Shown here: in pieces, positions 6,001 through 12,000 of the stretch | How the letters are laid out: the number at the start of each line of letters is the position of its first letter | Position numbering within the stretch: position 1 is the stretch's first letter | Assembly: GCF_002854065.1 (NCBI RefSeq) | Contig: NZ_CP024153.1 | Source of the DNA: Escherichia coli | Lineage (GTDB): Bacteria; Pseudomonadota; Gammaproteobacteria; Enterobacterales; Enterobacteriaceae | DNA length: 64,000 nt | Strand: one strand, 5' to 3' | Position numbers: made by a program

Positions 6001-9000
6001 GAAATAAGGGGCGCCGAGCGCCAGCGAGGGGAGCCAAAAGCTTGCTTTTGGCCGTCCCGACTTGATTGAAGGGTTGGGCGATTTTGCCATTAGATTTTTT
6101 ATAAATTTAGTGTGTTTAGAATGGTGATCGCATTTTTCTTGGCTTTTATGCTTGATGTTAAATTCGACCCCAAGTTTCCTGTAAGTGCGGACACAAAAAC
6201 ATATTTATGTCCTGATTTGCTTATAATAAACCCTTCAAACCATCCGTTTTGTAAGGTTCTATTTGCTGTGAATCCTGCACCAGTTTTCCCATACAGTTTT
6301 GTACTATTATCCAGATCTTGTAGATACATGTTCTCTATGGTGTTTTCTATGGCTGAGTTTTTAACTGGGAGATTGTGATTAATAATTTTACGCAGGAATT
6401 GAATTTGTTCTTCTGGTGAAATTTTTAAGCTACTTTCGAGCCATGCTTCTGTTAATCCGTTGTTTCTTTCTTTATCTCCAGAGAAGTCTTGATTTCCATA
6501 ATCAAAATCTTTGAGATAATTCTTGATTTTATTTAATCCAATTTTTTGGGTTATTTCTTGCGAAACCCAAACAACAGAAAATTGCATCCACGTCTTTGGT
6601 GTATGATTGCTGTTCCAGATCTCCATTCCTTTGGGGGTTTTATCCCATTTGAATATGGTTTTCTGATCTATTATTTCCGCATCAAATGCCATAAGTGATA
6701 ATGCGATCTTGAAAGTTGAATCTGGTGCCATTTGCGTTGCACACTTTGCTTTATTGAATTGAGCAATTTCAGCGTTTGTGGATGCATCGTAAAGTAAAAA
6801 ACAACCTTCAGTTCCTTCAAATAATGGAGATGCAACAGTAGAGATATCTGTTGATGCACTGGCGCTGCTGTAGATAATATTTGCAATTATTAAAAAAATA
6901 GCGAAGTTGATATGTATTGTGTTTTTCATAATAAGTATTGGTTTGGTAAAGGGCTTAATTTTAACGGCTAACAATTAATGAGGCTCCGGGTTCGCCCAAC
7001 GTTTGACATGAGGGGCGGCCAAGGGCGCCAGCCCTTGGACGTCCCCCTCGATGGAAGGGTTAGGCATCACTGCGTGTTCGCTCGAATGCCTGGCGTGTTT
7101 GAACCATGTACACGGCTGGACCATATGGGGTGGTTACGGTACCTTGCCTCTCAAACCCCGCTTTCTCGTAGCATCGGATCGCTCGCAAGTTGCTCGGCGA
7201 CGGGTCCGTTTGGATCTTGGTGACCTCGGGATCATTGAACAGCAACTCAACCAGAGCTCGAACCAGCTTGGTTCCCAAGCCTTTGCCCAGTTGTGATGCA
7301 TTCGCCAGTAACTGGTCTATTCCGCGTACTCCTGGATCGGTTTCTTCTTCCCACCGTCCGTCCCCGCTTCCAAGAGCAACGTACGACTGGGCATACCCAA
7401 TCGGCTCTCCATTCAGCATTGCAATGTATGGAGTGACGGACTCTTGCGCTAAAACGCTTGGCAAGTACTGTTCCTGTACGTCAGCAAGTGTCGGGCGTGC
7501 TTCTTCTCCGCCCCACCACTCGACGATATGAGATCGATTTAGCCACTCATAGAGCATCGCAAGGTCATGCTCAGTCATGAGGCGCAGTGTGACGGAATCG
7601 TTGCTGTTGGTCACGATGCTGTACTTTGTGATGCCTAACTTTGTTTTTGCGTTGCTCATGATGTCTAACTCCCAATTTGTGTAGGGCTTATTATGCACGC
7701 TTAAAAATAATAAAAGCAGACTTGACCTGATAGTTTGGCTGTGAGCAATTATGTGCTTAGTGCATCTAACTTTGTTTTAGGGCGACTGCCCTGCTGCGTA
7801 ACATCGTTGCTGCTCCATAACATCAAACATCGACCCACGGCGTAACGCGCTTGCTGCTTGGATGCCCGAGGCATAGACTGTACAAAAAAACAGTCATAAC
7901 AAGCCATGAAAACCGCCACTGCGCCGTTACCACCGCTGCGTTCGGTCAAGGTTCTGGACCAGTTGCGTGAGCGCATACGCTACTTGCATTACAGTTTACG
8001 AACCGAACAGGCTTATGTCCACTGGGTTCGTGCCTTCATCCGTTTCCACGGTGTGCGTCACCCGGCAACCTTGGGCAGCAGCGAAGTCGAGGCATTTCTG
8101 TCCTGGCTGGCGAACGAGCGCAAGGTTTCGGTCTCCACGCATCGTCAGGCATTGGCGGCCTTGCTGTTCTTCTACGGCAAGGTGCTGTGCACGGATCTGC
8201 CCTGGCTTCAGGAGATCGGAAGACCTCGGCCGTCGCGGCGCTTGCCGGTGGTGCTGACCCCGGATGAAGTGGTTCGCATCCTCGGTTTTCTGGAAGGCGA
8301 GCATCGTTTGTTCGCCCAGCTTCTGTATGGAACGGGCATGCGGATCAGTGAGGGTTTGCAACTGCGGGTCAAGGATCTGGATTTCGATCACGGCACGATC
8401 ATCGTGCGGGAGGGCAAGGGCTCCAAGGATCGGGCCTTGATGTTACCCGAGAGCTTGGCACCCAGCCTGCGCGAGCAGCTGTCGCGTGCACGGGCATGGT
8501 GGCTGAAGGACCAGGCCGAGGGCCGCAGCGGCGTTGCGCTTCCCGACGCCCTTGAGCGGAAGTATCCGCGCGCCGGGCATTCCTGGCGGCACTGTTGCAA
8601 ATAGTCGGTGGTGATAAACTTATCATCCCCTTTTGCTGATGGAGCTGCACATGAACCCATTCAAAGGCCGGCATTTTCAGCGTGACATCATTCTGTGGGC
8701 CGTACGCTGGTACTGCAAATACGGCATCAGTTACCGTGAGCTGCAGGAGATGCTGGCTGAACGCGGAGTGAATGTCGATCACTCCACGATTTACCGCTGG
8801 GTTCAGCGTTATGCGCCTGAAATGGAAAAACGGCTGCGCTGGTACTGGCGTAACCCTTCCGATCTTTGCCCGTGGCACATGGATGAAACCTACGTGAAGG
8901 TCAATGGCCGCTGGGCGTATCTGTACCGGGCCGTCGACAGCCGGGGCCGCACTGTCGATTTTTATCTCTCCTCCCGTCGTAACAGCAAAGCTGCATACCG

Positions 9001-12000
9001 GTTTCTGGGTAAAATCCTCAACAACGTGAAGAAGTGGCAGATCCCGCGATTCATCAACACGGATAAAGCGCCCGCCTATGGTCGCGCGCTTGCTCTGCTC
9101 AAACGCGAAGGCCGGTGCCCGTCTGACGTTGAACACCGACAGATTAAGTACCGGAACAACGTGATTGAATGCGATCATGGCAAACTGAAACGGATAATCG
9201 GCGCCACGCTGGGATTTAAATCCATGAAGACGGCTTACGCCACCATCAAAGGTATTGAGGTGATGCGTGCACTACGCAAAGGCCAGGCCTCAGCATTTTA
9301 TTATGGTGATCCCCTGGGCGAAATGCGCCTGGTAAGCAGAGTTTTTGAAATGTAAGGCCTTTGAATAAGACAAAAGGCTGCCTCATCGCTAACTTTGCAA
9401 CAGTGCCAGACAAAAGGCTGCCTCATCGCTAACTTTGCAACAGTGCCCCCTCCCGCACGATGATCGTGCCGTGATCGAAATCCAGATCCTTGACCCGCAG
9501 TTGCAAACCCTCACTGATCCGCATGCCCGTTCCATACAGAAGCTGGGCGAACAAACGATGCTCGCCTTCCAGAAAACCGAGGATGCGAACCACTTCATCC
9601 GGGGTCAGCACCACCGGCAAGCGCCGCGACGGCCGAGGTCTTCCGATCTCCTGAAGCCAGGGCAGATCCGTGCACAGCACCTTGCCGTAGAAGAACAGCA
9701 AGGCCGCCAATGCCTGACGATGCGTGGAGACCGAAACCTTGCGCTCGTTCGCCAGCCAGGACAGAAATGCCTCGACTTCGCTGCTGCCCAAGGTTGCCGG
9801 GTGACGCACACCGTGGAAACGGATGAAGGCACGAACCCAGTGGACATAAGCCTGTTCGGTTCGTAAACTGTAATGCAAGTAGCGTATGCGCTCACGCAAC
9901 TGGTCCAGAACCTTGACCGAACGCAGCGGTGGTAACGGCGCAGTGGCGGTTTTCATGGCTTGTTATGACTGTTTTTTTGTACAGTCTATGCCTCGGGCAT
10001 CCAAGCAGCAAGCGCGTTACGCCGTGGGTCGATGTTTGATGTTATGGAGCAGCAACGATGTTACGCAGCAGGGCAGTCGCCCTAAAACAAAGTTAGCCAT
10101 ATGAACTCGGAATCAGTACGCATTTATCTCGTTGCTGCGATGGGAGCCAATCGGGTTATTGGCAATGGTCCTAATATCCCCTGGAAAATTCCGGGTGAGC
10201 AGAAGATTTTTCGCAGACTCACTGAGGGAAAAGTCGTTGTCATGGGGCGAAAGACCTTTGAGTCTATCGGCAAGCCTCTACCGAACCGTCACACATTGGT
10301 AATCTCACGCCAAGCTAACTACCGCGCCACTGGCTGCGTAGTTGTTTCAACGCTGTCGCACGCTATCGCTTTGGCATCCGAACTCGGCAATGAACTCTAC
10401 GTCGCGGGCGGAGCTGAGATATACACTCTGGCACTACCTCACGCCCACGGCGTGTTTCTATCTGAGGTACATCAAACCTTCGAGGGTGACGCCTTCTTCC
10501 CAATGCTCAACGAAACAGAATTCGAGCTTGTCTCAACCGAAACCATTCAAGCTGTAATTCCGTACACCCACTCCGTTTATGCGCGTCGAAACGGCTAACC
10601 ATTCCGTCAACGGGACGCCAAAATGCTGCGCATTTTGGTTCCCTCCGCTGCGCTCCGGCTCTCGTTACGTCCAACGTTAGCACCACTGAAACCCAGCTTT
10701 ATTTAGCTCATGTTTATTCAAACGGCATTTAGCTTTTCAGGCGTTATTCAGTGCCTGTTTTGCCTTTTTTCCGGGCTTCGCCTGCATGGGCTGCGCAGGT
10801 TTTCAGTCTTTTTGGCCTCTAGCCCTTGCGTAGCAAGCGCAAGCAGCTATCGTTTTTGCAGTGCTGTGCCGCCTCGGTGGCGCAGCGTTTTTTCACGGTT
10901 AGCGCCCGTCGCCAAATTCAAGTTATCCGTTTTGGCTTCTGGTTCTAACATTTCGGTCAAGCCGACCCGCATTCTGCGGTCGGCTTACCTCGCCCGTTAG
11001 ACATCATGAGGGAAGCGGTGACCATCGAAATTTCGAACCAACTATCAGAGGTGCTAAGCGTCATTGAGCGCCATCTGGAATCAACGTTGCTGGCCGTGCA
11101 TTTGTACGGCTCCGCAGTGGATGGCGGCCTGAAGCCATACAGCGATATTGATTTGTTGGTTACTGTGGCCGTAAAGCTTGATGAAACGACGCGGCGAGCA
11201 TTGCTCAATGACCTTATGGAGGCTTCGGCTTTCCCTGGCGAGAGCGAGACGCTCCGCGCTATAGAAGTCACCCTTGTCGTGCATGACGACATCATCCCGT
11301 GGCGTTATCCGGCTAAGCGCGAGCTGCAATTTGGAGAATGGCAGCGCAATGACATTCTTGCGGGTATCTTCGAGCCAGCCATGATCGACATTGATCTAGC
11401 TATCCTGCTTACAAAAGCAAGAGAACATAGCGTTGCCTTGGTAGGTCCGGCAGCGGAGGAATTCTTTGACCCGGTTCCTGAACAGGATCTATTCGAGGCG
11501 CTGAGGGAAACCTTGAAGCTATGGAACTCGCAGCCCGACTGGGCCGGCGATGAGCGAAATGTAGTGCTTACGTTGTCCCGCATTTGGTACAGCGCAATAA
11601 CCGGCAAAATCGCGCCGAAGGATGTCGCTGCCGACTGGGCAATAAAACGCCTACCTGCCCAGTATCAGCCCGTCTTACTTGAAGCTAAGCAAGCTTATCT
11701 GGGACAAAAAGAAGATCACTTGGCCTCACGCGCAGATCACTTGGAAGAATTTATTCGCTTTGTGAAAGGCGAGATCATCAAGTCAGTTGGTAAATGATGT
11801 CTAACAATTCGTTCAAGCCGACCGCGCTACGCGCGGCGGCTTAACTCCGGCGTTAGATGCACTAAGCACATAATTGCTCACAGCCAAACTATCAGGTCAA
11901 GTCTGCTTTTATTATTTTTAAGCGTGCATAATAAGCCCTACACAAATTGGGTAAAACCGCAAGAACTGTAATTATGAATTTGTCAGAAAACTATCCGTAC

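Follow-up and report, generated by a model that had tools for sequence, protein, structure and literature searches.

The locus lies in a 64-kb stretch of Escherichia coli DNA (the window), in which two truncated intI1 genes converge on a single complete IS26 and their integron cassette arrays point outward. The IS26 is followed on its right side by an additional 40 bp of IS26 right end, referred to below as the stump. The features of the locus are as follows.

4792-7698, minus strand: left integron cassette array (NCBIfam matches to rifampin ARR, CatB, OXA-1 family and AAC(6')-Ib)
4792-5244, minus strand: arr-3
5329-5961, minus strand: catB3
6099-6974, minus strand: blaOXA-1 ORF
7060-7698, minus strand: aac(6')-Ib-cr type ORF
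7906-8587, plus strand: ΔintI1 nt 1-682 (227 codons and 1 nt), 100% identity to intI1
8588-9407, plus strand: complete IS26, 820 bp, reference sequence type
9408-9447, plus strand: orphan IS26 right end (IS26 nt 781-820), the 40-bp stump
9408-9415, plus strand: putative 8-bp copy-in target AGACAAAA (IS26 nt 781-788), one copy retained
9448-9956, minus strand: ΔintI1 nt 1-509 (169 codons and 2 nt), 100% identity to intI1
9957-14289, plus strand: rest of the right module, including attI1 (NCBIfam matches to DfrA12, AadA and bleO)
10101-10598, plus strand: dfrA12
10710-11000, plus strand: orfF/DUF1010
11006-11797, plus strand: aadA2
12282-12674, plus strand: PNPOx-family ORF
12994-13371, minus strand: bleO
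13468-14289, minus strand: inverted IS26

The breakpoints in the integrase genes were located by alignment with a full-length intI1 (1014 bp, from NZ_CP055110.1). The first-pass annotation had placed the cuts near codon 227 on the left and codon 170 on the right, on opposite strands, and the alignment confirmed this, with the left gene broken in codon 228 and the right gene in codon 170. The left fragment abuts the IS26 left terminal repeat, and its reading frame continues into the IS26 as far as a stop at 8604. The nt 509 end of the right fragment abuts the outer right terminal repeat of the stump. No further intI1 sequence was found anywhere in the 64-kb window, and a full-length 337-aa IntI1 is absent, both copies having lost the C-terminal third. 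The cassette arrays had accordingly been described as frozen. The truncation of both integrases stands, but the description holds only in cis and is overstated, since attI1 and Pc (TGGACA-N17-TAAACT) are intact on both sides, with the cassettes next to them, as in the 5'-conserved segment of a class 1 integron. The cassettes are therefore predicted to be still expressible, and IntI1 supplied in trans could still move them.

The complete IS26 has perfect 14-bp terminal inverted repeats (GGCACTGTTGCAAA/TTTGCAACAGTGCC) and carries tnp26 on the plus strand. Its DNA is 100% identical to the annotated IS26 of NZ_CP024136.1, and the transposase ORF (8633-9355) is an intact member of the IS6 family (NCBIfam profile NF033587, transpos_IS6, E=2.5e-82). 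The stump abuts this element directly and in the same orientation, and a second 14-bp right terminal repeat forms its outermost part, so that it could offer Tnp26 a putative second, outer right end. The extra 40-bp repeat at the right junction had been recognized at first inspection; positions 9408-9447 are an exact copy of 9368-9407, and Tandem Repeats Finder reports a period of 40, 2.0 copies, 100% matches and a score of 160. An exact 40-bp tandem repeat that stops precisely on an IS terminus is not a product of chance. A transposase-made joint is indicated because the duplication stops exactly on the IS terminus and its borders have no microhomology (left ...GAATA/AGAC..., right ...GTGCC/CCCT...). 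At this joint, an exact IS terminus lies on one side and the interior of an IS26 on the other, at a pre-existing junction between IS26 and its flank. No 8-bp target-site duplication flanks the complete IS26 (left TTCCTGGC; right AGACAAAA, within the stump) or the 860-bp unit of IS26 and stump (left TTCCTGGC; beyond the stump CCCTCCCG), as one would expect once IS26 has gone through a deletion or recombination. Tracing by the 8-bp sequences beside the window's other IS26 copies yielded no matching pairs.

Both halves of the locus exist separately, each with a complete IS26. The left module (L) has the form arr-3/catB3/blaOXA-1/aac(6')-Ib-cr-attI1-ΔintI1(1-682)/IS26. Window positions 4700-9407 show 99.9% colinearity with pS40-2 (NZ_CP045842.1), an annotated plasmid from Citrobacter, and the junction ΔintI1(682)/IS26, taken as a 181-bp sequence, occurs in 351 PLSDB plasmids. 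The right module (R) is found elsewhere as IS26/ΔintI1(1-509)-attI1-dfrA12-orfF-aadA2-...-bleO-IS26(inverted). Window positions 9408-14289 are colinear with plasmids p14EC017b (NZ_CP024136.1) and pUO-STmRV1 (NZ_CP018220.1); the 4.9 kb compared are 99.9% identical and take in the nt 509 breakpoint of intI1. The difference lies in the left IS26 of the module, which is complete in both plasmids and abuts intI1 nt 509; the stump aligns with its final 40 bp, the sole part present in the window. The same IS26/intI1-509 junction without a stump was found in 28 records, namely 14 PLSDB plasmids and 14 E. coli RefSeq records. The completeness of the left IS26 in p14EC017b and pUO-STmRV1 indicates that the stump is what is left of the IS26 resident in module R, and the earlier suggestion that the 40 bp are the leftover of a second IS26 is upheld by this colinearity. 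Another idea, that bleO and aph(3')-II might be halves of a split Tn5, was dropped; the gene is bleO, and the flank signature gives no support.

The exact window junction, in which IS26 and 40 bp join both modules, is absent from PLSDB and the complete E. coli RefSeq genomes. It is therefore new to these collections, although the structure of a complete plus a partial IS26 is already known. The reciprocal junction, IS26(1-788)/IS26, is absent from the window and PLSDB, which would follow from a deletion or from loss of the partner product. No record was found in which other DNA lies between the two modules. When 100,044 species genomes were scanned for the exact pattern, the single match was an irrelevant one in Acinetobacter, and a metagenome search gave seven matches, of which two are unrelated repeats. 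A literature search returned no described 40-bp or 37-bp IS26 stump and no intra-IS26 hot spot, only the PTn6020 composite.

Similar structures do occur beside other flanks. The identical arrangement of IS26 and 40 bp is present next to two other unrelated flanks, in Salmonella (NZ_CP149304.1) and Klebsiella (NZ_OV753989.1), and a version with a 37-bp right-end stump adjoins seven unrelated flanks. For at least six of the eight stump contexts, the same IS26/flank junction is found without a stump in other plasmids, which indicates that stumps form in place at resident IS26 copies. For this reason, a moving 857/860-bp unit of IS26 and stump was discarded as the general cause of the recurrence. 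Mirror-image stumps, at the left end and in inverted configurations, were found in 45 plasmids and, in metagenomes, also in other IS26-family elements. Reciprocal products exist elsewhere as well, as IS26(1-791)/IS26 and IS26(1-789)/IS26, corresponding to targets 784-791 and 782-789. Plasmid pCUVET18-62.1 (CP150988.1), in which an IS26 with a 37-bp stump is accompanied by an inverted IS26/IS26(1-791), retains the two products of a single event; the 8-bp sequence CAAAAGGC (784-791) is inverted at the two junctions, a pattern that is the hallmark of an intramolecular replicative inversion.

These findings bear on whether the stump could be trivial. If IS26 repeats had been collapsed in the assembly graph and an overlap left untrimmed at the border, the last k bases of IS26 would be repeated in exactly this manner, and two 1-bp homopolymer insertions in the IS26 at 13468-14289 suggest imperfect polishing. 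Such an artefact is nevertheless highly improbable: of the window's eight IS26 ends, only one shows the duplication, the same 40-bp and 37-bp stumps turn up in assemblies made by many laboratories and are shared by inheritance between sister isolates, and the partner products and the logic of the target duplications are biologically coherent. Replication slippage or unequal crossing-over, without a second IS26 taking part, would likewise leave two exact and adjacent 40-bp copies, as observed. Very little probability is assigned to such a simple duplication, considering the lack of microhomology at the borders, the exact stop at the IS terminus in about 10 other contexts, and the existence of reciprocal IS26(1-791)/IS26 products and of the inverted 8-bp duplication. 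Slippage also leaves the joining of two different integron modules unexplained, and neither PLSDB nor E. coli RefSeq contains a stump-less ΔintI1(682)/IS26/ΔintI1(509).

The locus is probably, with a likelihood of roughly 70%, the scar of a single copy-in attack that the module-L IS26 made on the copy resident in module R. In such an event, two pre-existing IS26-bounded resistance modules would have become joined at the locus. The module-L IS26 would have been the actor, using its own transposase and working at its right end, and replicative strand transfer would have been directed into the resident copy at the 8-bp target nt 781-788. The choice of AGACAAAA as the target is suggested by the 8-bp staggered chemistry of IS26 and by analogy with CP150988.1. 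The event may have been an intramolecular adjacent deletion between copies in the same orientation, an intramolecular inversion, or the formation of an intermolecular cointegrate. In any of the three modes, one product would consist of a complete IS26, IS26 nt 781-820 and the old right flank; the DNA between the two IS26 copies and nt 1-780 of the resident copy would pass to the other product, outside the window. Neither an abutting tandem nor a targeted conservative step is needed for the structure.

The locus is an ordinary product of IS26 activity and offers nothing new by way of gene, function or mechanism. A published framework covers intramolecular deletion and inversion by replicative IS26 transposition (He et al. 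2015, PMC4471558). The mechanism proposed for the window is the same: an IS end is transferred to a new target, cut with an 8-bp stagger, and the outcome is an adjacent deletion, an inversion or a cointegrate. The window locus differs in that its target would sit inside another IS26; in the passages searched, the flank table of that paper shows partial IS26 copies only as blanks. A close counterpart is CP150988.1, which has the same type of junction, likewise beside a class 1 integron. There, the target is 784-791, the outcome is an inversion and both products were kept; in the window, the target would be 781-788 and one product was kept.

The first-pass annotation had favoured a longer route, in which a targeted conservative reaction set a second complete IS26 directly next to the first, in tandem, and the first 780 bp of this second copy were later deleted. 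Tandem copies do exist, with an exact head-to-tail IS26/IS26 in NZ_CP149295.1 and near-tandems (+1, +3 or +6 bp, or a second copy minus 4 bp) in about 38 plasmids, and the deletion step would be the same right-end attack by IS26 at 781-788. However, the intermediate with two complete copies was not found at the locus in PLSDB or E. coli RefSeq, and two events are invoked where a single event suffices. Nothing points to the conservative step. The published targeted conservative reaction links two molecules via complete, directly oriented IS26 copies (PMC7885326), and the second copy in the window measures just 40 bp. Cointegration by this reaction yields IS26-segment-IS26 and no abutting copies (PMC7885326); the window does not have the two complete IS26 bounding a segment without duplication that characterize such a cointegrate. 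In the work on targeted conservative cointegration and translocatable units (Harmer & Hall, PMC7885326), one IS26 recognizes another, as in the window. Nevertheless, in that reaction extended identity is needed, strands are exchanged at the boundary between IS and flank, and both IS26 copies stay complete, whereas the stump junction is internal to IS26. The tandem route is thus unlikely, and the claim of a targeted conservative insertion was not sustained. A tandem intermediate is in any case a special case of copy-in with zero DNA between the IS26 copies.

It is also conceivable that a preformed 860-bp unit of IS26 and 40 bp arrived at the locus and that its stump was placed on the intI1-509 flank by the Tnp26 conservative reaction or by homologous recombination inside the 40-bp stretch. 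The presence of an identical 40-bp stump in three contexts speaks for such a unit, as does an IS26 with a 37-bp stump in NZ_AP045806.1, a unit that has the 8-bp duplication GTCGAAAG on either side. A complete IS26 abutting a partial one has moreover been published as IS26-v1-Δv2 of PTn6020 (Harmer et al. 2022, PMC9602291), a pseudo-compound transposon of the AbaR islands of Acinetobacter baumannii, and this composite moves as one and makes target-site duplications (PMC9602291). The likeness to the window extends to the retained outer terminal repeat and the possibility of acting as one element. PTn6020, however, contains other IS26 variants and another partial copy and flanks aphA1, and its composite was shown moving as a unit with target-site duplications, whereas the window unit has no duplication and is known from its sequence alone. 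Against a preformed unit, no conservative reaction (0 of 30 cointegrates) took place at the end of an IS26 derivative with 44 bp of right-end identity (PMC7885326), and no record places ΔintI1(682)/IS26 with the stump beside another flank. Multiple origins are indicated by 37-bp stumps in other IS26-family elements and at left ends. The arrival of a ready-made unit is therefore improbable.

Under the copy-in reading, the stump records the fusion of module L (aac(6')-Ib-cr/blaOXA-1/catB3/arr-3) with module R (dfrA12/aadA2) and would mark the module-L IS26 as the active partner. Short IS26 stumps are easily overlooked or taken for assembly noise. They are durable scars that give the direction and order of IS26-driven rearrangements.

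The lengths of the stumps raise the tentative idea that IS26-family transposases may favour, as copy-in targets, certain sites some tens of bp in from the termini of another copy of their own IS, possibly as a by-product of the end-to-end synapsis on which the targeted reaction relies. If true, such preferred targets would bear on the synapsis of Tnp26 with a second IS26. Stumps of exactly 37 bp occur at the right end in the seven unrelated contexts, at the left end in at least two, and also in two other IS26-family elements; 38-bp left stumps and 40-bp right stumps occur in three contexts each. The 8-bp targets at the two ends of IS26 have no common sequence. A single hot zone 32-41 bp from the IS26 ends was considered and is weakened by a control search, in which stumps of about 56-64 and 82-89 bp were found in similar numbers of records. 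Any preference would consequently involve several sites and not one zone. Among the longer stumps, a length of exactly 58 bp occurs in two contexts.

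The junction between the two integrons was resolved by sequence reading of 7500-10500 with scripted checks for IS26 and its repeated end, and by alignment with full-length intI1 for the two integrase gene fragments:

7906-8587, + strand: ΔintI1(682), nt 1-682 of intI1, 100% identity
8588-9407, + strand (transposase): complete IS26, 820 bp, perfect 14-bp terminal repeats
9408-9447: exact second copy of IS26 nt 781-820 (the stump)
9956-9448, - strand: ΔintI1(509), nt 1-509 of intI1, 100% identity

Both intI1 genes converge on IS26 and the cassette arrays face outward; the alignment revealed no additional intI1 within the window. 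The coordinates and intI1 codon estimates of the first-pass annotation are correct. Tandem Repeats Finder describes the duplication as period 40, 2.0 copies and 100% matches. Its origin by replication slippage is unlikely, because no microhomology was found at its borders, duplications of this kind always stop at the IS terminus, and the site brings together two different modules.

The left half (module L) carries arr-3, catB3, blaOXA-1 and aac(6')-Ib-cr (NCBIfam) and is 99.9% colinear, from 4700 to the IS26 end, with the Citrobacter plasmid pS40-2. Its ΔintI1(682)-IS26 junction is old and widespread, being found in 351 PLSDB plasmids. The right half (module R), from the first stump base at 9408 to the end of the inverted IS26 at 14289, matches E. 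coli p14EC017b and Salmonella pUO-STmRV1 with 99.9% colinearity; their order is IS26, ΔintI1(509), dfrA12, orfF, aadA2, PNPOx, bleO and inverted IS26. Since the left IS26 is complete in both plasmids, the stump is what survives of the IS26 resident in the dfrA12 module, which bears out the earlier suggestion that the 40 bp come from a second IS26. Without a stump, the junction of IS26 with ΔintI1(509) is present in 14 plasmids of PLSDB and in 14 RefSeq records of E. coli. The truncation of intI1 by IS26 and the linkage of integrons through IS26 are commonplace. None of the databases searched contains the junction of the window: IS26, the 40 bp and intI1-509 together were found in 0 of 72,556 plasmids and 0 of 5,426 E. 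coli genomes.

A single copy-in event explains this junction most simply: with its right end, the intact IS26 of module L would have attacked module R's resident IS26, with nt 781-788 as the staggered 8-bp target. Whether the outcome was an adjacent deletion, an inversion or a cointegrate, it would leave a complete IS26, then nt 781-820, then the old flank. The geometry fixes the module L copy as the actor, because attack by the left end of the resident IS26 would put a left partial copy in front of a complete IS26, which is not seen. No reciprocal junction was found in the window, nor in PLSDB for target 781-788, and no tracer pairs were found among the flanks of the window's other IS26 copies. 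Of the three modes, deletion with loss of the partner product most simply suits the missing reciprocal junction.

The first-pass annotation had proposed that targeted conservative insertion placed a tandem IS26, most of which was then deleted. In the published model, the conservative reaction links molecules via complete IS26 copies at the IS-flank boundary and depends on a long stretch of identity at the end that reacts; in 30/30 cointegrates, an IS26 whose right end shared 44 bp of identity reacted at its left end only (PMC7885326). The route is not required. About 38 plasmids do carry exact or near tandems of IS26, so a tandem intermediate is possible, but it is only the special case of the general copy-in model with zero DNA between the copies. 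Plasmid NZ_CP149295.1 (3261-4900) holds an exact IRR-IRL tandem of two different IS26 variants. In NZ_CP024143.1 (2261-3896), IS26 is followed by IS26 without its first 4 bp, beside IS6100-mphR(A), as in 24 plasmids; in NZ_CP015086.1 (2261-3906) and other plasmids, 6 bp (TCGAGA) lie between two IS26.

The stump in the window is not a one-off. IncL/M plasmids from Klebsiella and an IncFIB plasmid from Salmonella carry identical IS26 plus 40-bp structures with unrelated flanking DNA, and a 37-bp stump (nt 784-820) occurs with seven different flanks, one of them an E. coli chromosome. Because stump-less IS26-flank counterparts exist in other plasmids for at least 6 of 8 stump contexts, stumps form in situ where an IS26 is already resident, and do not result from a longer IS inserting at new sites. 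Reciprocal products were found as well (IS26 nt 1-791 or nt 1-789 abutting IS26), and plasmid CP150988.1 retains both products of one event. There, a dfrA17-aadA5 integron lies between IS26 with a 37-bp stump and an inverted IS26 that abuts inverted IS26 nt 1-791, and both junctions have the 8 bp CAAAAGGC, in opposite orientations. This arrangement is the signature of intramolecular replicative inversion, a reaction that He et al. described for IS26 (PMC4471558).

Mirror-image stumps (a left-end stump before IS26, or inverted stumps of either end) occur in 45 further plasmids, with exact left stump lengths of 37 bp in two contexts and 38 bp in three. In a metagenome pattern scan, two other IS26-family elements showed end stumps of 37 bp, and one 33-bp inverted left-end stump of IS26 turned up. 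Three metagenome contigs carry other IS26-family elements with Acinetobacter-type sequence: in L018 the 37-bp left end is repeated exactly in tandem, in L021 such a copy is diverged, and in L016 a right-end stump of 37 bp adjoins an inverted left end. In NZ_AP045806.1 (about 2501-2605), the same 8 bp, GTCGAAAG, borders a unit of IS26 plus 37-bp stump on either side, and the stump-less junction is found in NZ_CP061102.1; this suggests that a sister copy of this IS26 made the attack (e.g., in a plasmid dimer) or that the 857-bp unit moved.

An assembly artefact is unlikely, because only 1 of 8 IS26 ends in the window is affected and the same structures, with coherent partner products, occur in many independent assemblies. 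Polishing may nevertheless be imperfect, as the IS26 at 13468-14289 (- strand, 822 bp) has two 1-bp insertions in short homopolymers, at IS26 positions about 455 and 514. They would frameshift tnp26, so that this is either an inactivated copy or a sequencing error left uncorrected.

Stump clustering at 32-41 bp from the ends, the first idea, was undercut by a control search for stumps of around 60 and 85 bp, which gave similar record numbers (58) and one exact stump length (58 bp) in two contexts. It is defensible that IS26-into-IS26 events occur at many near-end positions and that certain exact positions (37, 38, 40 and 58 bp) recur independently. Both ends show the 37-bp length, as do other family members, and the target sequences are unrelated; this recurrence is a hint of a preference that depends on distance, which fits with the improved binding of Tnp26 as the end probe extends to 40 bp of IS sequence (PMC8477213).

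Neither integron can make IntI1, as had been noted, since intI1 ends at nt 682 or nt 509. The arrays are frozen in cis only, a narrower sense than was claimed: both integrons retain attI1 and the Pc promoter TGGACA-N17-TAAACT (sequence reading), presumably of the PcH1 type, so their cassettes can be expressed and remain substrates for an integrase in trans. With the stump comes a second right terminal repeat, on the outside, which could be open to use by Tnp26. In PTn6020, a complete IS26 likewise abuts a partial one, and this composite (IS26-v1-Δv2) moves as a single unit and generates target-site duplications (PMC9602291). For the window, there is little support for the possible alternative that an 860-bp unit arrived ready-made and then underwent exchange inside the 40 bp.

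The IS26 copies in the window are of two sequence types. Three copies (1-619 and those starting at 3163 and 8588) are of the reference type. Four, starting at 13468, 18421, 25277 and 31293, have G459A, G613A and G614A, which we take to be the IS26-v1/IS15DI type (Tnp26 G184N). A second orphan right-end fragment adjoins no other IS26 and is cut beside an IS91-family (ISCR-like) element. It and other cargo are as follows:

1456-2112: qnrS
21003-21147, - strand: orphan IS26 right-end fragment, 145 bp (nt 676-820)
21313-22512: ORF of the IS91-family (ISCR-like) element
24289-25083: aph(3')-II, beside an IS4-family transposase
26685-31036: oqxAB, bracketed by directly oriented IS26 (25277-26096 and 31293-32112)
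33206-44974: copper/silver efflux operon, sil/cus type, with its own two-component regulator
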